From the NCBI RefSeq assembly GCF_004010195.1, contig NC_057719.1, positions 48,718,914 through 48,782,913 on the forward strand: 64,000 bases of DNA, written 5' to 3'. The notes under the pieces were generated by a model. That model ran no database searches. It was not told where the DNA came from and saw only the letters and a list, made by a program, of their open reading frames with translations. Shown here piece after piece: positions 1 to 51,500 of this stretch. Origin of the DNA: Chiloscyllium plagiosum. Taxonomy: Eukaryota. The position numbers were made by a program, and so were the translations under genes. Numbering within the stretch: the stretch's first letter is position 1; each line of letters begins with the position of its first letter.

Positions 1-737
1 CCAGAGTCTTATACAACTGCAATATGACCTCAGTACTCCGGAACTCAATTCCTCTACCAATAAAAGCCAGTATGCCGTATGCCTTCTTCACCGCACTATT
101 TACCTGGGTGGCAACTTTCAAAGATTTGTGTACATGGACACCAAGATCCCTCTGCTCATCCACACTACCAAGTATCCGACCGTTAGCCCCGTACCCCATC
201 TTTTTATTACTCTTACCAAAGTGAATCACCTCACACTTAGCTACATTGAACTCCATTTGCCACCTTTCTGCCCAGTTCTGCAGCTTATCTATATCCCGCT
301 GTAACCTGCCACATCCTTCCTCACTGTCTACAACTCCTCCGACTTTCGTATCATCCGCAAACTTGCTCATCAACCTTCTAACCCCTCCTCCAGGTCATTT
401 ATAAAAATGACAAACAGCAATGGTCCCAAAACAGATCCTTGCGGAACACCGCTAGTGACGGCACTCCAAAATGAACCTTTGCCGTCAACTACTACCCTCT
501 GTCTTCTTCCGGCCAGCCAACTCCTAATCCAAACCTCCAACTCACCCTCAATGCCATACCTCCGTATTTTTGGCAGTAGTCTACCATGGGGAACCTTATC
601 AAATGCCTTACTAAAATCCATATACACCACATCTACCGCTTTCCCCTCGTCCACCTCCTTAGTCACCTTCTCAAAGAATTCAATAAGGTTTGTGAGGCAC
701 GACCTGCCCTTCACAAAACCATGCTGACTATCCTTGA
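1..737 (-). mobile_element. CR1/HER1-type LINE ORF2 reverse transcriptase fragment, 5'-truncated exactly at the array motif; continues off the window
   Basis: ORF 370-714(-) has the CR1 RT motifs [27 protein letters not shown] and [14 protein letters not shown]. The sequence continues into FADD-region and downstream CR1 sequence toward position 1. Confidence 0.95.
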
Positions 738-751
738 CACTCCTGTTTATA

Positions 752-1156
752 ATATTTTATTAAACAAATTACAAAATAATTTACAAAAAACAGTTAACAT
801 TTACAGCTGTATACAACAGCAATTTTACAAGGGAGAGGAGCAGCAAAGCTAGGCCCCAAACCCTACTGTTCAACCAGTTTACAGGGAAATGAGGACAAAC
901 CACAAATCCCAGTTTCAAAAATAAAAAGACAGCAACAATGACCTTTATACATAAGACAATCCAGTTACATTAAAAAAAAAGTGCAGACAATACAGACCCA
1001 GCAAGCCCCCGTCCCTCCCATCTTCCGGCCACTCTAAGGCAGCCCGCCCCTACCCACCTTCCGGCTCTTGGTCCACCCCATGCCCTTTCCAGTTCTCGGT
1101 CCGCCCTGAGACACCTTTTGACCACCTCTAGGACAGCCCAACAGCGGTCAGGACGG
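752..1156 (-). mobile_element. Unclassified retroposon 3' end (type A), copy 1
   Basis: On the - strand: a GC-rich part, then an AT-rich 3'UTR-like part with AATAAA running straight into TATAAACAGGAGTG. Flanked both sides by CACTCCTGTTTATA. Paralogous to 1171-1710. Confidence 0.7.
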
Positions 1157-1170
1157 CACTCCTGTTTATA

Positions 1171-1710
1171 ATATTTTATTAAATAAATTACAAAATACAG
1201 TTTACAAAAAAAAGTAACATTTACAGCTGTATGCAACAGCAATTTTACAAGGGAGAGGAGCAGCAAAGCCAGGCCCCAAACCCTACCGTTCAACCAGTTT
1301 AAAGGGAGATGAGAACAAACCTCAAATTCCAGTTTCACATATAAAAAGACACAGTGACAATGACATTTGTACATAAAAGGGCAATCCAGTTACATAAAAA
1401 AGTGCATACAATACAGACCCAGCAATCCCCTGTCCCTCCCACCATTCGACCACTCTAAGGCAGCGCGCCCCTACCCACCTTCCGGCTCTTGGTCCACCCC
1501 ATGCCCCTTCCAGTTCTCAGTCTGCCCTGACACACCTTTTGACCACCTCTAGGACTGCCCGCCCCGGTACCTGCCCAGGGTGACAGCGGGCAGGACGGCC
1601 TACCCACCTTCTGGCTTCACTAGCCACCCTCAGCACCTTTCGACCACCTCTAGGGCAGCCCGCCCCGGTACCTGCCCAGGGTAGCCCGCCCCGGTACCTG
1701 CCCAGGACGG
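1171..1710 (-). mobile_element. Unclassified retroposon 3' end (type A), copy 2, longer, with internal subrepeats
   Basis: Aligns by eye with 752-1156 with scattered substitutions and indels. The extra 5' part contains repeated GCCCGCCCCGGTACCTGCCCAGG. Confidence 0.7.
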
Positions 1711-2292
1711 CACTCCTGTTTATTTTTTTCTTTTTTGTTCTTTGTTTTTCTTTGTTGAGCAGAACCTCTGACACTCCTGTTCCTTTTTTTTAAAAAAACC
1801 CACATTACTGCCTAACTGCGGTAGTGCTTATTTTTTCCCCAGCACCCATGTTGTGTGTGTGCAGGTATGAGACACAGGCACTCCTTTTTTTTTACTACTT
1901 CTTTTTTCTTTTTTTATTTTATAGCCAGCTCTCAGAGTGAACAGGATGTTTGACACCCCTGTTTTTTTTCCACCAGCACCCATGTTGTGTGTGTGCAGGT
2001 GTGAGACACAGGCACTCTTGTTTATTATTCACATCAAAGGGCAGTGCTATGTGATCAAAACAGTGAAGGGGAGGGTAGGGACTAAATCAAAATAGAGTTG
2101 GTGGGAGAAATAATGCACTCCACACACTCCTGTTTATTTTTTTTCTCCTTTTTTATTTTTTTTATTTTTTTTCTCTTTTTTTATAATATTAACCCCCACA
2201 CTACCACCTAAGTGCGGTAGTGCTGATAAACACTGTCCTTCACATCAAAGGGCAGTGCTGTGTGATCAAAACAGTGAAGGGGAGGGTAGGGA

Positions 2293-2448
2293 CTAAATCA
2301 AAATAGAGTTGGAGGGAGAAATGATGCACTCCACTCCCTGCGGCGCCCACCTCTCCCTGAACAACTCCAGGGTGTTGGTGGACACTGTGTGCTCCTTCTC
2401 CAAGGACACCCGGGCTCTAACGTAACTGCGGAAGAGGGGCAGGCAGTC
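2293..2448 (-). pseudogene. C-terminal 51 codons of Tx1-like ORF2 (not in the ORF track)
   Basis: Manual translation gives DCLPLFRSYVRARVSLEKEHTVSTNTLELFRERWAPQGVECIISPSNSILI*. This matches the typical Tx1 ORF2 C-terminal pattern (FR..VR.R...E.......L..F...WA..GV.C). Confidence 0.85.
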
Positions 2449-3182
2449 AGCACACTCCTGTTTATTTTATTTTTTTTCTTTTTCTTATTTAAACCCCACA
2501 CTACCACCTAAGTGCGGTAGTGCTTATTTTATCCCCAGCACCCATGGTGTGTGTGTGTGCAGGTGTGAGATACAGTGAAAGACACAAAGTGCACGAATCT
2601 TTATTCAATTTCCACCACCAGGAAGATAGGAAAACACCCGAGTGGCCAGTGACAAACACTGCCCTTCACAGCAAAGGGCAGTGCTGTGTGATCAAAACAG
2701 TGAAGGGGAGGGGAGGGACTAAATCAAAATAGAGTTGGAGGGAGAAATAATGCACTCCACGCCCTGCAACACTCCTGTTTTTCTTTCCCCAGGGTATTGG
2801 TCGACACCGCGTGTTCCTTCTCCAAGGACACCCGGAACACTCCCCTTTATATTCTTTTTTTTTCAGTGACAAACACTGCCCTTAACACTTCTTTTTTTTT
2901 CCTTTTAACCCCCACAATACCACCTAAGTGCGGTAGTGCTTATTTTATCCCCAGCACCCATAGTGTGTGTGTGCAGGTGTGAGACACAGTGAAAGACACA
3001 AAGTGCACAAATCTTTATTCAANNNNNNNNNNNNNNNNNNNNNNNNNNNNNNNNNNNNNNNNNNNNNNNNNNNNNNNNNNNNNNNNNNNNNNNNNNNNNN
3101 NNNNNNNNNNNNNNNNNNNNNNNNNNNNNNNNNNNNNNACACCATGGGTGCTGGGGAAAAAATAAGCACTACCGCAGTGGGG

Positions 3183-3310
3183 TGTAGGTTTGATATCCAG
3201 ACGTTTCGTTACCTGGCTGGGTAACATCATCAGTGGCGACCTCCAAGTGAAGCGCTTCACTGATGATGTTACCCAGCCAGGTAATGAAACGTCTGGATAT
3301 CAAACCTACA
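3183..3310. mobile_element. Penelope-like pseudo-LTR fragment in inverted arrangement, with a minimal hammerhead-like motif
   Basis: CTGATGA-tGTTACC-cagcca-GGTAAT-GAAAC at 3260-3290, with its reverse complement at ~3202-3234. It shares the GAAGCGCTTCAC motif with the Penelope element at 18130-18798. Confidence 0.75.
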
Positions 3311-3918
3311 CCCCACTGCGGTAGTGCTTATTTTTTCCCCTGCACCCATGGTGTGTGTGTGCAGGTGTGGGACACAGTGGAAGACACAAAGTGCACCGAT
3401 CTTTATTCAATTTCCACCACCAGGAATATAGGAAAACACCCGGGTGGCCAGTGACAAACACTGCCCTTCACATCAAAGGGCAGTGCTGTGTGATCAAAAC
3501 AGTGAAGGGGAGGGTAGGGACTAAATCAAAATATAGTTGGAGGGAGAAATGATGCACTCCACTCCCTGCAGCCACACTCCTGTTTATTTATTTATTTATT
3601 TATTTATTTTCCTTTCAAATCTTTATTCAAATTCCACCACCAGGAAGATAGGAAAACACCCGGGTGAAAACTCCCCTTTTTTTTATTTTAACCCCCACAC
3701 TACCATCTAAGTGCAGTAGTGCTTATTTTATCCCCAGCACCCATGGTGTGTGTGTGCAGGTGTGAGACACAGTGAAAGACACAAAGAAAGAAAGGGCAGT
3801 GCTGTGTGATCAAAACAGTGAAGGGGAGGGTAGGGACTAAATCAAAATAGAGTTGGAGGGAGAAATGATGCACTCCACTCCCTGCGGCCGCACTCCTGTT
3901 TATTTATTTATTATTTTT

Positions 3919-4178
3919 TAAACAGGCCCTTCGGCCCAACAAGTCCACACCGACCCGCCGAAGCGCAACCCACCCATACCCCTACATTTACCCCTTAGTA
4001 TGACCTGACCCTGCACATCTTTGGATGGTGGGAGGAAACCGGAGCACCCGGAAGAAACCCACGCAGACACGGGGAGAACGTGCAAGCTCCACACAGTCAG
4101 TCGCCTGAGGCGGGAATTGAACCCAGGTCTCTGGCGCTGTGAGGCAGCAGTGCTAACCACTGTGCCACCGTGCCGCCC
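3919..4178 (-). mobile_element. HE1-type tRNA-derived V-SINE with a non-canonical A-rich tail, inserted at the array target site
   Basis: On -, it starts GGGCGGCACGGTGGCACAGTGGTTAGCACTGCTGCCTCACAGC (A box; B box GGTTCAATTCC) and ends GGGCCTGTTT plus an A-rich tail. Nearly identical to 46294-46613 apart from an internal deletion and the tail. Confidence 0.95.
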
Positions 4179-4279
4179 ACACACTCCTGTTTATATCTGT
4201 CAGTCAGGACTCCCTGATTGGACCAGGTTAACTCATATTGAATGAGGTCCACCTGGCTGACCTTGTTCCAATCATTCCA
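4179..4279 (-). promoter_or_regulatory. Upstream half of the insertion target: LTR-U3-like sequence with CCAAT and TATA boxes
   Basis: The - strand reads ...GTTAACCTGGTCCAATCAGGGAGTCCTGACTGACAGATATAAACAGGAGTGT. This is the only motif copy not preceded by a retroposon 3' end. The LTR assignment is inferred from the CCAAT/TATA layout. Confidence 0.55.
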
Positions 4280-5465
4280 CTCCAACATGAGGGCTTGGAG
4301 ATGGCAGTGACCATGCCATCAAGAGTGAAATTGTGGATATTGTCCCCACTACCTGTTTTAGTCCAGGGTGGAAAAGCGAGAGGGGGCCTTCCTCCCTAGA
4401 GGCCAATTGAAGCCCATAGGTGGCTATTCTATTCATTAATTTGGTTCATACAATAAGACACAGAACTGATCTTGGAGAAGTAATATTTAATAGATGGTTT
4501 CTATCAAGTTTTTAAACATATCAATTAAAATCATTATAAAGACCATCCCTTTGGAGAAGATATTACAATATCAAATAAATTAAGAAATAAAATGAGTCCA
4601 TGTATCTTGTGCTGTATTTATGAAAAGGTCTGTACAGTTGCTTAACAAAAATGCAAATTCCAGCAAGCTCATGTGATGTGCTGTCTTATCTGACCAGTAG
4701 GTAAATTTGTGAGTAATTAAAATCAACTGGTCTAGCTGATCCTGCCTTTAGCTATTCCATTAGTTAATTATCTCCCCACTTGGTGTTAAAAATGCCTGTT
4801 CAGTGACACCAAGAGTCAAAGAAAGGAGCTAAATTACTTTAATTATTGAGTAATTGCACACAGCGATGTTAATTAAATCTTGATCAGTTTGACTAAGTGA
4901 ATTGATTTCTCTTACTTAGAATGCAAACCACAGAGAGACAAGCCATTTCATAGTTTAATTAACATTACCTTATCACATCCCCAACATACTAAACAGACAT
5001 TAAACTCAGTTAGGTCTCAGTGATATTTTTCTCTTGTTTTCATACGATGTCAGCAATATTTGCTCCATCACAGTTACAATATATATATATAAAATATGTT
5101 GTTTAACTTTAAGGTTGTATCCTTTGTCATTTCCAGAAGGTGAACATGTAGCATTATTGTGTTCACATTTTCCTCCTGTGAATGCAGGCCATTTTTCTTA
5201 ACACAGAGGGCGACACTGGCTTGGCCCAAGTGATCAATCCCAAAATTAAATAAAAATGCTACTTTTTTAGAGGGGCACAACCAATAAAAACCCAAAGGAA
5301 ACATTTCAAGTTGATATAAAGCATTGTTCACATTCTCCTTTAAAGGCTGCAAAAAGTGCAGCTCAGTTTTATAAAACAAAGAACTGGGGATATTGGAGAT
5401 CTCAAATAAACAAAAACAGAAATTGCTTGTGAAACTCAGCAGATCTGGCATCATCTGTGAGAGTT

Positions 5466-11839: not shown

Positions 11840-11911
11840 AACCTGGTAGTCTAGTGGTTAGGATTTGGCACTCTTACTGCCAAGGCCAGGGTTCGATTCC
11901 CGGTTAATGAA
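11840..11911 (+). pseudogene. tRNA-Glu(CTC)-derived pseudogene
   Basis: Ungapped 72-nt match to the vertebrate tRNA-Glu-CTC sequence as I recall it, with about 13 mismatches. A and B boxes are intact (GTCTAGTGGTTAGG, GGTTCGATTCC). The acceptor stem is broken and the anticodon reads CTT. Confidence 0.85.
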
Positions 11912-11966: not shown

Positions 11967-12318
11967 GGGCGGTACGGTGGCTCAGTGGTTAGCACTGCTG
12001 TTTCACAGTGCCAGGGACCTGGGTTCAATTCCAGCCTTGGGCAACTGTCTGTGAGGAGTTTACACATTCTCCCCGTGACTGGGTGTGTTTCCACCAGATG
12101 TTCTGGCTTTCTCCCACAGTCCAAAGATTTGCTGGTTATGTGAATTAGCCAAGCTAAATTGCCCATAGTGTTCAGGGATATGTAGGTTAGATGCATTAGT
12201 CAGGGGTAAATGTAGAGTAATAAGGCAGAGGATTGGGTCTAGGTGGGATACTCTTCAGAGGGTCGGAGTTACCTTGTTGGGCCAAATGGCCTGTTTCCAT
12301 GCTGTAGGGATTCTATGA
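11967..12318 (+). mobile_element. HE1-type SINE, full length
   Basis: GGGCGGTACGGTGGCTCAGTGGTTAGCACTG head; GGCCTGTTTCCATGCTGTAGGGATTCTATG tail. Confidence 0.93.
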
Positions 12319-12889: not shown

Positions 12890-13400
12890 ATGGAACAGGG
12901 AGCACAGCAAGTGTGGGCCAAGTCCCAGAGTGGGAGCAGAGCAAGTGTGGGCCGAGTCCCAGAGTGAGCAGCAGAGCGAGTGTGGGCCGAGTCCTGGAAT
13001 GGGGAGCAGAACGAGTGTGGGCCGAGTCCCAGAGTGGGAGCAGAGCGAGTGTGGGCTGAGTCCCAGAGTGGGAGCAGAGCGAGTGTGGGCTCAGTCCTGG
13101 AATGTGGAGCAGAGCGAGTGTGCACCAAGTCCCAAAGCAGGGAACAGAGCGAGTGTGGGCTCAGTCCTGGATTGGGGAGCAGAGCGAGTGTGGGTTCAGT
13201 CCTGGATTGGGGAGCAGAGCAAGCATGGGCTGAATCCTTGAGCAGGAACACAGTGAGTGTGGGCCAAGTCCTGGAGTGGGAGCAGAGCAAGTGTGGGCCG
13301 AGTCCCGGAGCAGGGAGCAGAGCAAGCATGGGCTGAGTCCTTGAGCAGGAACACAGTGAGTGTGGGCTGAGACTTGGAGTAGGAGCAGAGTGAGTCCATG
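12890..13400 (+). repeat. Minisatellite with a ~34-36 bp unit (GGGAGCAGAGCGAGTGTGGGCCGAGTCCCAGAGT), about 14 copies
   Basis: Tandem units are directly visible and explain the repetitive ORFs on both strands. Confidence 0.92.
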
Positions 13401-46293: not shown

Positions 46294-46613
46294 TTAGATT
46301 AGATTACATTATATTACATTTCAGTGTGGAAACAGGCCCTTCGGCCCAACAAGTCCACACCGACCCGCCGAAGCGAAACCCACCCATACCCCTACATTTA
46401 CCCCTTACCTAACACTACGGGCAATTTAGCATGGTCAATTCACCTGACCTGCACATCTTTGTGACTGTGGGAGGAAACCGGAGCACCCGGAGGAAACCCA
46501 CGCAAACACGGGGAGAACGTGCAAACTCCACACAGTCGCCTGAGGCGGGAATTGAACCTGGGTCTCTGGCACTGTGAGGTAACAGTGCTAACCACTGTGC
46601 CACCGTGCCGCCC
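46294..46613 (-). mobile_element. HE1-type SINE, young, with the canonical CR1-like tail
   Basis: Many CpGs are intact. On - it ends GGGCCTGTTTCCACACTG followed by short tandem repeats (AATGT/AATCT). Confidence 0.95.
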
Positions 46614-46902
46614 ACAGTTTTGTAGATACTGATCAACTAATGTACAGGATAAGGGCAACTCTGGGCTGCCAACTTTAGATGAATGCACAGCTAGGGTTCA
46701 AAGATGGCACCGGCACCAAGAATCCTGGGATTTCACAACAATGGTGGATAGGTCTGCTTATGGCGAATGGGAGAATTGGACTAGAATCAGATCAGTCGGG
46801 TGCAATAATTAATGAAGTGAATTTTGGATGGTAGCTTGAGAAAACTCACAATAACCCATGGAGAGAAGCTGACCTCCTGATGAAAATTACATAGAACTGA
46901 CT

Positions 46903-48513
46903 TAGAGTCATACAGTCAGAGCGTCCTACAACCTGGAGACAGGCCCTTCACCCCAAACTGGTCCATGTTGACCAAAATGTCCATCCGTGATAACCCGTTT
47001 CCCTGCACTTGGCTCACATCCTTCTAACTTTTCCTATCCATATATTTATCCAAATGTCTTTTAAATGTTGTTAATGAACCTGCCTCAACCACTTCTGCTG
47101 GCAGCTCATTCAATACGCTTACCACCGTCTCTGTAAAAGAGTTGCCCCTCAGCTTCCCTTTTATTCTTTCCCCTCTAACCTTAAAGTGATGCCCTCTAGT
47201 CCTGGATTCCCCAACCCAGGAAAGAAGACTGAGTGTACTCACCCTACCCATGCCTCTCATGAGCTTATACACTTTTACAAGATCCGCCCTCAGTCTCCTA
47301 AGCTCTAAAGAACAAAATCCTAGCTTGTCCAAACTTTCCCTATAACTCAGAACATTGAATCCTGGCAAAATGCTTGTAAATTGCTCCTGCATTCTTTCCA
47401 GTTAAATAACATTCTTCCTATAGCAAGATGATCAAAACTGAACACAATACTCCAAGTGCGTCCTGTACACATCAACGTCCTGTACAACTACAACATAACT
47501 TCCCAACTTCTACATTCACGTCCTTGTCTAAATGTGACAACTTTCAGAGAACTGTGCACCTGAACTCTGAGGTACCTGTCCCATTACACTCCTTAAGGCC
47601 CTACCATTCAACATGAAACTCCTACCTTGATTTGACTTTCCAGAATGCAAGACCTCACACTTTTCTATATTAATCTTTATTTGCCATTTCTTGGCCAACT
47701 TCCCCAGTTGCTCCAGATCCTGCTGTATTTTCTGATAACCTTCTTCACTGTCCACGATACCACCAATGTTAGTGTCATCTGCAAACTTATTAATCATGCC
47801 TTGTACATTCTCATCCAAATCATTGATATAGGTAACAAACAGCAATGAGCCCAGCACTGACCCCTGAGGTGCACCATTAGTCACAGGCCTCCAGTCCGAC
47901 AAGCATCCTTCTACTATTTTCCTCTGCTTTCCACCACCAAGCCAATTGTGTATCCAATTTGCCAGTTCTCTCTGGGTTCCATGCAATCTAACCTTCGAGA
48001 GCAGCGGACTACCATGTGGAACCGTATTGAAGGCCTTATTGAAATCCATATAGACTACGTCTACCATTCTACCCTCATCAACCTTCCTGGTCACTTCATC
48101 AAAGAACTCTAACAAATTTGTGAGACATGATCTCCCATGCTGATTTTTTCTAATCAAGCCCTGTGTTTCCAAATGCATGTATATCTTATCCTTGAGAATT
48201 TTCTCAAATAAATTACCTACTACAGATATTAGGTTTACTGGTCTATAGTTCCTAGGTTTTTCTTTGCAGCCCTTCTTGAAGAAGGGCACAACATTCACTA
48301 CCCTCCAGTCTTCCAGGACCTTATCCATGGCTAATGATGATGCAAGTATACCAGCAAGGTCCCCTGCAATTTCTTCTCTAGCCTCTTGCAGGATTCTTGG
48401 ATATATCTGGTCAGGACCAGGAGATTTATCTACCTTCATACATTCTAATACATCCAACACCTCCTCTATGGTGATATGGACTGTCCTCAAGATATCACCA
48501 CTAACTTCCCCAA
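46903..48513 (-). mobile_element. CR1 LINE ORF2 (RT) to 3' end
   Basis: ORF 47528-48586 has KSPGPDQIYPRIL, NYRPVNLISVVG, GAPQGSVLG and KFADDT. ORF 47024-47392 is the C-terminal part. Confidence 0.95.
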
Positions 48514-51500
48514 GTAAGACTGCTGGTAAGACTGAGCCCTTTGTCTTCAGGATCTGCTTGCAGTCCCAATAGTGGCCTCTATTCACTTGGCTTGCTGTGT
48601 TCTTCCAACCTCCTTATTGCCTACTTTGAATTCCAGCACCTGCAGGTTTTTTGTCTCTATTCACCCCTGGAACTGTTGGGGTAACAAAGCTGCCAACCAA
48701 TCTAGGGCAGGACTTCCTGTTTTTGAGGAGCAGTATACCACTCATAACAAATTGACACAGCCCTCAACACATTATCTTTGTAGGGCAATTCGACTTTTCT
48801 CTGGGTAATCTGTCTCTGTAAAATTCATATGCTGATGCCTGAAAGCATTGGAAACATAAATAAGTACCACTAAACTAAAAGTTGGAGGCGTTTGTGTTAT
48901 GAATTTCCAACTTTGCCACCTGAATTAATGTTTTTTCAGGCTTTGAGCTGACTACAAGCTCTGCTGTAGCACTTTGCTTTGATTCTGTTTAGCTTGTAAA
49001 TGGTTGCTTTTCTTCTTGATCCTCCTGTGTGCTTCAACAAATAGCTATTCTATTTTGAAGCAATAAGTATAGATTTTGTTTACTTTGTTTAATTGTTTTG
49101 TTTGATTTTGTACATAAATGCATAAGAAAACAATGCAATGTGAAAACTTTTCAATTCTGAAATAAATATAAAAGCTTATAAATTTAATCAAAGACGAGAA
49201 AAACATCTTACAAAATCAGTAGACTTGAAACTATGATAAGTGAAGTACTGTTCTAATTCAGATAGTCTAATTCTTTCTGTACTCTGCTCCTTAATAACAA
49301 TTGTGAAAAATGACCCTGTGCCTGGCATCCTCCAGTATTTTGGTCTAATTTTAAATCCGTTCAAATGGGTGAGGTTGACTGAATTAAAATCAAGTCTGTT
49401 GAGTCTGTTAAGTTTGTAGACAGTGCTATTTAAAGTATGAAGATGGTCTGTATATCTGTAAAACACTAGCTATTGTACAACAGCACCATTTATAGTCCTA
49501 AAAATAAGAAAGCTTCAGAGGTCTATTTGATTCTTCTTTTGTGTGCGAGGATGTGAATTTTTAAGTGTGGTCATCTTGACAAAAAGATAATACCTGAATG
49601 TGTCATCATCCCCAAACAATTGTTGCAAAAACTCTACTGCATGGAACTCAAAACCTTTGAGTTTCAGTAAAAATGACAGTAATAACTGCTTATAATTGGA
49701 AGTAAAGTTGAAAAAATAAATCAGGCCTTTGAAATATTACCAACAGTTGTGTTCCCCACAAATCTGTTTAGATTTTGATTTAGAAGTCTCAGGCTTAGGT
49801 TGTGCTGGCCCTTTAATTTTTTTGTGACAAGATGTGAAACATTTAAAATATACTTAGAGCATTTCCTGCTGCTAAATCCTGGCAGATTACTTGTAGTCTT
49901 ATCCACCAAAGCAAAAATGCATTGCAAGTATTTGGATATTAAACCTTTGGAGGACTGTCTTTTCAGGAGAGTAATCATTGGTATTAACATTCATGATTTT
50001 AACAGGGGAACTGATCACAGCTGCATTTGAGCTTGGGGTAAGTATTACTGTATTGTTTAAGAAATGCGCTCATTTAAGGTATTAGTGAAGATTAATTAGG
50101 CATGGACTAATATGGATTAATATAGTTTCCAATCACAAATTTCACTTACTTTTATTCAGTAAAATATGCTAAGATTTATTTAATTTTATTAATCCAATTA
50201 AATAGAATTATAAGGAAATAGCTTTCTAATGTATATACAGCTTATTATGTGGACATATTTTCACAAAGCTGGAATGAATGAAATAAATCAGGTTAACAGT
50301 TTTATTATGAGTTTTATGATTTAATGAACTTTAGATGTTGGTGCTATGGGGAACCTCCTTTATAACTCCCAGACATTGTCACCATGGTGGTAGTGGACAG
50401 CCTCAGAACATGGACTCAACATAGATGAGCAGATTTTTCTTTCTTTTGACAGATATGTTTTGTTTGTTTTGCTTTATTCCAAACCTGCTCTTTAATTTCA
50501 ACTATTGTTTCAAAATAATGTGATAACCCTTTAATAACTTTATACGCTTCCATGGCAGATTTAAAAAGATCAAACTCCTCAATGCATTTTGTTATTCATG
50601 AAAATATTCTAAATTAAGCAAGACAATACAGATCAGTGCCAATTACAAAAGAAAAGTAATTTTATGCTATTTATCCATTCAAATTTAAAGAATGTGGTTG
50701 TTTGCTAGTGCAGTATGAAAACCCTGATCTCCACATTCTGAAAGTTGGAAAAGTCTTTCAGTACTGTAAGAGTTAAGTAATTGAATGGATTGTGTCATCC
50801 TATGGGATGGTGAGGTGCTGCAGTGCCAGTGACAGATTAAAAGTGGTTAACCTGTATCCTAATCGCATTGCTACCTTCATTCCAGAATGAAACTGGGAAT
50901 GTATAATTTTAGTGTCAACCTTTTTTACTATAGGTACTTCCTAGCATTTTTCTGTTGCTCAGGGATCAAGAGCATTACAACAAGTCAGTCTGCACTATGC
51001 AAAATCTTCCCAAGCTGCATTCTTCAAACTCATTCAGCATCCCATTATGCTACATCAGGCATAGGCCTCAAACTACTGAGAAGTTAACTGAGTTGCTACA
51101 TGAATCCCAAAGCAGTTCTTACTTAGTACAGATAATATTTGGATGACATTTATACAAAGTGACTTCTATTTTGCTTCATCAAAATAACTGCCCTCACCTC
51201 AATCACAAGATATGATCAAATGAACCAGTGTCTGTAAATAATAATCAAATTGTAGAAAGAAAATATAGCAACAAAATGCAGAAATTCAGTGACTGTCTTG
51301 CATTCTTCTGTAAATAGCATGCTGTCAGCTTCAAACATAAATAACAGATGTGTGATGCAAATGGGAAGAAAATGAAGCATGAAAATATGCGAGTGGAAAG
51401 AGGGAGAATATTTTTACTACATTGTCAATAATTTTTTATTTGGGTTTAAATAAATATGTATAATTTTAGTGTCAACCTTTTTTACTATAGGTACTTCCTA

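Follow-up and report, generated by a model that had tools for sequence, protein, structure and literature searches.

Site-specific LINEs mark their own work, since anything found at the target together with the target's duplication was inserted by the LINE's enzyme. In crocodilian genomes, SINEU-1, SINEU-2 and SINEU-3, which are associated with Tx1-Mar, are snRNA-headed families of hundreds of copies, and Tx1-8_Crp and Tx1-4_AMi display a preference for LTR retrotransposons (Kojima 2015, PMC4494074). For L1, the literature describes 3'-truncated poly(A) snRNA pseudogenes (Doucet et al. 2015, PMC4476161) as well as chimeras formed by early template switches (Kojima 2010, PMC2912911), and both models, the early switch and the pre-adenylated decay intermediate, are proposed there (PMC4476161, PMC2912911). 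HE1 of sharks and rays is presented, in two further reports, as a tRNA-type V-SINE with the tail of HER1 (PMC3747384 Table 1, PMC4824008), and the exchange of tails by template switching is put forward in the second of these as a route by which SINEs change their partner (PMC4824008). Head-to-tail arrays are a natural record of the RNAs accepted by a non-mammalian L1-related enzyme, because the insertions carry both the target and the duplication; such enzymes are considered, according to one study, to need RNA structure besides an A-tail (PMC7245038). Among the titles and abstract openings returned by literature searches, none dealt with HE1 or another CR1-tailed SINE at a Tx1 target.

In this study, a window of 64 kb, which is the whole stretch of DNA analysed, was found to harbor an array of Tx1-like LINE 3' ends whose outermost unit is a short SINE copy. 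This SINE is HE1-like and a putative V-SINE, a class defined by a tRNA-derived head with A and B boxes and a central V-domain of about 80 bp. We read the event as, most probably, a one-off capture in which a CR1-type SINE was taken up by a site-specific Tx1-like LINE.

Comparison with described systems

The locus resembles the SINEU/Tx1-Mar system in being an A-tailed short retroposon at the target of a putative Tx1-clade LINE, probably located in another mobile element and stacked in tandem around the duplication. It differs from that system in that there is one copy in 64 kb, and in that the copy is a putative tRNA-type SINE whose family has a CR1-type tail and hence another partner. Compared with the L1 snRNA retrocopies, a small RNA cut at its 3' end, an A-rich tract and a flanking duplication are shared, whereas mammalian L1 acts at TT/AAAA on snRNA cargo and the present case would involve a sequence-specific Tx1-like LINE and the SINE of another LINE. 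Tailless retropseudogenes are similar to the extent that the 3' break is set by a short stretch over which RNA and target match; however, pairing in those cases is with the primer strand and no tail is added (Noll et al. 2015, PMC5322556), while in the present copy it is the sequence of the primer strand that the RNA shares, making it complementary to the other strand, and a tail intervenes. With HE1/HER1, the copy has in common promoter boxes of putative tRNA type, as well as a 3' tail that also occurs at the ends of CR1-like LINEs of the same genome; unlike HE1, it is missing the terminal portion of the tail along with the terminal repeats, and carries an A-tail and a 13-bp duplication. In its workings the event is comparable to an L1-type retrocopy or chimera, a rare but known kind of accident, and membership in a Tx1-dependent SINE family goes beyond the evidence.

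The Tx1-like array

The array is a head-to-tail stack of about 3.5 kb on the minus strand (738..4194), with 15 target-like motifs and 14 intervals, the latter being mostly short Tx1-like LINE 3' pieces with A-rich tails. Allowing at most one mismatch, the target 12-mer was observed 10 times in the window (8 exact), on one strand only and entirely within 738-4193, and shuffled controls contained 0.47 on average and never more than 3. Sequence-specific insertion, an A-rich tail and a duplication are all displayed by the array units, and this was seen at one locus. An assembly gap (N) is present at 3023-3138, about 750 bp from the SINE. Viral, GTDB and metagenome contigs did not contain the target pattern, and 24 sequencing runs were listed for 3860-5400, of which 8 contained at least half of the words and none was an RNA run.

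The array unit is assigned, indirectly and from sequence relationships, to a putative Tx1-like LINE by way of the protein P0021. The last 52 codons and the stop of a Tx1-like ORF2 were recognized at 2293..2451 (minus strand) as the sole portion of this ORF2 that the window contains, with 26 of 51 residues identical to the end of P0021, a 1308-aa protein with Exo_endo_phos, RVT_1 and zf-RVT domain matches (APE-RT-zfRVT), of which the RVT_1 and zf-RVT matches lie at or above the search E-value and zf-RVT under its curated cut-off. Residues 900-1308 of P0021 (409 aa) share 67% identity with a protein named transposon TX1 149 kDa, and the direct match of the 52-aa piece to the TX1-named protein P0023 is weak (E 3e-4). 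This piece had no match in the word-indexed protein search and none in Pfam; the HMMER search with it produced 19 hits, one of them with zf-RVT, and the Atlas search of P0020 returned zf-RVT clusters that do not bear a Tx1 name, with a recognition value below threshold. At least three of the eight named relatives of the array protein that were looked up are shark proteins, in keeping with a shark genome. It was also noticed that P0007, P0016 and P0021 have the public names of CutA, FAM241B and rhombotin-1 isoforms, yet contain Tx1-like ORF2 sequence inside, and P0021 resembles an entire LINE ORF2 carrying a host-gene name.

Eleven LINE pieces were detected, and 10 of them have a scorable 3' end, the eleventh being broken by an inverted repeat. 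Five of the scorable ends are complete, with GG(G/T)TT followed by the tail, and the other five were cut early and then tailed, including one that ends at a native A-run. The array LINE is young, as five of the pieces differ by just 0-4 mismatches in 85 nt.

Other units are present in the array. A second A-tailed family is represented by two units at 738-1710, which occupy the same target and are 89% identical over 409 nt; both start with CCGTCCTG and display AATAAA 24 nt before the end, and no long frame was found in them. At 1711-1771 and 1879-1953, there are short A-tailed non-LINE units with similar starts (TCAGAGGTTCTG and TCAAACATCCTG) that begin with TCA, and these are possibly the downstream half of the host repeat, produced by 3' read-through from two different donor loci. 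Beside the assembly gap, a 216-bp near-perfect inverted repeat (3139-3354) harbors a hammerhead-like CTGATGA...GAAA motif on both strands (3260 on the plus and 3233 on the minus strand), which is suggestive of a Penelope-like fragment. An Rfam search of 3100-3400 recorded no hammerhead match, and only hairpin-type miRNA matches under their gathering scores.

Structure and junctions of the SINE copy

Read on the minus strand from 4194 to 3891, the order is ATAAACAGGAGTG, the 262-nt SINE (4181-3920), a 16-nt A-rich tail and ATAAACAGGAGTG again. The upstream copy of this 13-bp target duplication (4182..4194) is joined to the 5' end of the SINE with zero extra bases, and the downstream copy occupies 3891..3903. 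The SINE body (3920..4181) is intact at its 5' end, where it starts with TGTGGGCGG as does the copy at 46616, and its 3' end is cut after GGGCCTGTTT, so that the minus-strand end runs from GGGCCTGTTT through AAAAAATAATAAATAAATAAA to CAGGAGTG. The tail, whose length of 16 nt refers to the part outside the duplication (3904..3919), consists of TAA/TAAA units and resembles that of the neighbouring unit at 3575. The observation of a SINE at the target is real and beyond chance.

Near 3997-4003, internal deletions of 8 and 21 nt set the copy apart from the relative at 46294, a difference that the preliminary description did not mention. Motifs resembling the pol III A box (4157..4167) and B box (4113..4123) were located on the minus strand against consensus sequences, while neither ARAGORN nor Rfam called a tRNA at the SINE head, and the only related Rfam match covered 13 nt of the tmRNA model (E 0.14). 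Alignment showed that part of the 3' tail common to the CR1-like LINE ends in the window is retained at 3920..3960 on the minus strand, and that the final part, comprising CCACACTG and the terminal repeats, is absent. With the terminal repeats of the normal tail lost, the 3891 copy is probably a dead end. At the break itself, CCTGTTT (3920..3926, minus strand) equals 7 nt of the primed target strand, and together with 3895-3902 it constitutes an 8-bp inverted repeat that spans the tail.

SINE and CR1-type tails in the window

The comparison copy at 46294..46616 (minus strand) has a normal tail and no long duplication; it contains the CCACACTG that the 3891 copy lacks, and ends in GGGCCTGTTTCCACACTG and imperfect TAAT(C/G) repeats. 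The two copies are identical in 245 of 257 aligned columns (about 95%), or in 238 of 258 in the MAFFT alignment. The preliminary description is upheld in its statement that the 3891 copy is A-tailed and flanked by the array's duplication, which measures 13 bp (3891-3903, 4182-4194) instead of 12, and it was right about the tail and short repeats of the relative, whose 5' end lies at 46616 rather than at 46613. In five other scored SINE copies, the longest flanking direct repeat reached 4-6 nt.

Sixteen fuzzy matches to the common SINE/CR1 tail motif were detected in the window, and only the 3891 copy is both A-tailed and at the target. Twelve of the other 15 clearly run on into the normal CC/CT end and three are degenerate or chance matches, a class to which 2-3 of the 15 possibly belong. 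The last 40 nt or so of four SINE copies align with five other ends in the window, and at least two of these ends, 36950 and 46937, are situated downstream of RT-coding sequence. A 3' tail in common with a CR1-type LINE, as in a SINE with a CR1-type partner, is a feature of the family of the 3891 copy, and the normal HE1/HER1-type insertion signature (complete tail, terminal repeats, no long duplication) was not found at this copy. The LINE that shares the tail is presumably HER1, of the CR1 clade.

In public sequence, the SINE tail pattern had no matches in GTDB and viral contigs. Fifteen metagenome loci with the pattern were rejected as chance, given that all 15 share just the 19-21-nt motif and look like microbial coding sequence. 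Two further elements were noticed in the window. One is an Rfam tRNA match at 11847-11903 (34.8 bits, gathering score 29), where ARAGORN called nothing; some 60 bp downstream of it, an older SINE copy at 11967 has the same orientation. The other, at 47528-48613, is an open frame of 361 aa that encodes an RT domain (PF00078, E 1.4e-24) and is the longest CR1-like open frame in the window.

Probable insertion of the SINE by the array machinery

The SINE was very probably inserted by the machinery of the array, because its strand, its site, its 13-bp duplication and its TAAA-rich type of tail are all those of the array. A random insertion would bring its 5' end within 3 bp of the motif end, in the right orientation, at a rate of about 0.0008 per insertion, and chance landing is disfavoured because a separate loss of the tail would still be needed. 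The template was probably a pol III-made RNA, as the exact 5' end of the SINE indicates. The 95% identity of the SINE to its relative and the young age of the array LINE are compatible with overlapping activity, and either of the two families at the target, the Tx1-like LINE or the family at 738-1710, may have been the source of the enzyme.

It had been proposed from the first inspection that an A-tailed HE1 RNA, trimmed at its 3' end, was inserted by the Tx1 machinery. The array signature agrees with the second half of this proposal; as for the trimming and A-tailing of the RNA before its use, an early template switch from the LINE's A-tail would account for the copy equally well or better. 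Trimming and A-tailing appear instead to be the behaviour of the machinery, as five of the 10 scorable LINE pieces are likewise 3'-trimmed and A-tailed; and given that such ends occur in half of the LINE pieces, a trimmed passenger would have needed no special adaptation. The insertion of a Tx1-like element into a genomic SINE at an AAACAGG look-alike was also considered and rejected, as it would give a T-tract, not an A-tract, on the sense strand of the SINE.

Origin of the 3' break

We consider that the SINE was probably a stray passenger of the site-specific Tx1-like ORF2 protein, taken up by an early template switch. In the proposed mechanism, the endonuclease would nick the target after CACTCCTGTTT(AT), as the duplication common to the units indicates, and the RT would start on an A/TAAA-rich tail, presumably that of its own RNA or one made by slippage. 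It would then copy a pol III SINE transcript from the internal CCTGTTT to the 5' end, the two end points being observed and the RNA template deduced from the exact 5' end, and the joining of the second strand would yield the 13-bp duplication that is seen in the sequence. For the copying step, an early template switch is slightly preferred to an RNA that had been trimmed and adenylated beforehand. The switch may have been aided by short matches, of 7 nt to the target and 2-4 nt to the LINE end; at the nick, the SINE RNA could find a pairing partner in the unprimed target strand.

No other of the 304 possible ends in the normal copy matches either target strand over as many nucleotides as the break does, namely the 7 nt of CCTGTTT, identical to the primed strand, and a match of at least 7 nt was obtained in 739 of 200000 trials with shuffled targets (p ~0.004, post hoc). 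This match, judged from sequence, suggests a guided template switch. The LINE's own end has TT or TTT before the tail, which provides a match of TT or GTTT to the SINE break, and in three of the five complete ends the match is only TT. A predicted stem is also disrupted, as the break takes away all but one of the 10 bases in its 3' arm (from the MFE structure only, with no shuffle control), and the position of the break inside this stem would count against an exonuclease, because an exonuclease is expected to stop 3' of the stem. All three observations, the target match, the LINE-end match and the stem break, involve one T-run. Seven other trimmed or odd units of the array match the target by at most 3 nt at their ends, which argues that the machinery does not need a target match. 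The case for capture comes from one copy, with no empty site seen, and the 7-nt match was noticed post hoc.

Alternative explanations

The nearest alternative retains the same enzyme and supposes that the SINE RNA was shortened beforehand, by a premature pol III stop at UUU or by decay, and was oligo-adenylated by RNA surveillance, the RT priming on that tail. The break does end in three U, as a pol III end would, and odd 3' ends are evidently tolerated, to judge by the trimmed A-tailed LINE pieces of the array; for snRNAs and L1, retrocopies that are 3'-truncated, carry poly(A) and are flanked by duplications have moreover been described (PMC4476161). Against this, TTT occurs six times in the normal SINE copy and TTTT is absent from it, which leaves UUU unremarkable as a terminator, the 7-nt target match is left unexplained, the break falls within the stem predicted by folding, and a search of the human genome did not find A-tailed truncated 5S/U2 intermediates (PMC5322556). 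We regard this explanation as unlikely, although not negligible. Of small probability is a SINE subfamily that has changed its partner, in which an A-tailed, internally deleted master was spread to the target by the Tx1-like LINE. No second such copy is present among the 16 tail matches in the 64-kb window and no LINE 3'-UTR has been gained, even if the private 8- and 21-nt deletions could be subfamily marks and the A and B boxes, compared with the consensus, are intact. SINEU-3 with Tx1-Mar may serve as its precedent (PMC4494074), and template-switch tail exchange is proposed for SINE superfamilies (PMC4824008).

CR1-like elements and the SINE are abundant in the window, a CR1-like fragment adjoins the other end of the array too, and the 3891 copy has other deletions; the usual CR1-type partner could thus have inserted the SINE into the AT-rich array with later loss of the tail, or DNA repair or gene conversion could have placed it there. 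Such an origin is very improbable, as the 5' end would have to coincide with the edge of the target, at the low rate per insertion given above, and, independently of this, sequence would have to be deleted so that a tail of the array type and a perfect 13-bp repeat remained; the other copies have no long duplication. Lastly, an assembly chimera within the repetitive and gapped array, for which the N gap at 3023-3138 and the near-identical units might speak, is scarcely credible, because both SINE junctions are exact with the same 13-mer at each, and the copy has variants of its own.

Under the preferred reading of a single capture by the Tx1-like LINE, the copy is a tidy example of behaviour already known, and the capture of a SINE of another LINE clade would point to looser recognition or to easy template switching. 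It is rather unlikely that the capture is recurrent and sequence-guided, such that the CTGTTT of every CR1/HE1-tailed shark RNA matches the target and these RNAs are cut at the same base. It would be just as doubtful, on that recurrent reading, that SINE and LINE RNAs of another clade are delivered to the TATA-like site of an LTR, with 1-737 as a second case. If captures do recur at the same base, the route by which SINEs change partner becomes countable, with a bearing on the cargo rules of site-specific retroelements, and recurrent capture, if true, could mark the outset of a process in which a SINE changes partner and gains target specificity.

Host repeat and far edge of the array

In the host repeat, a putative LTR, a CCAAT (4221-4217) and a TATAAA (4195-4190) were observed on the minus strand (4190..4221), the former 26 nt upstream of the latter, and the target overlaps this TATA-like box. 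At the far edge of the array, a 5'-truncated CR1-like RT fragment (1..737) begins immediately beyond the last target copy and lies on the strand of the array (minus). Its first bases, TCA, are also the start of the units at 1711-1771 and 1879-1953, and its 3' tail is projected to lie 490-520 bp to the left of the window. Either this fragment represents a further captured RNA, or the host repeat may have been split here by an ordinary insertion. Elsewhere in the window, a GC-rich 35-bp tandem repeat of about 14 copies occupies 12891-13395, with a higher-order period of 103 bp.
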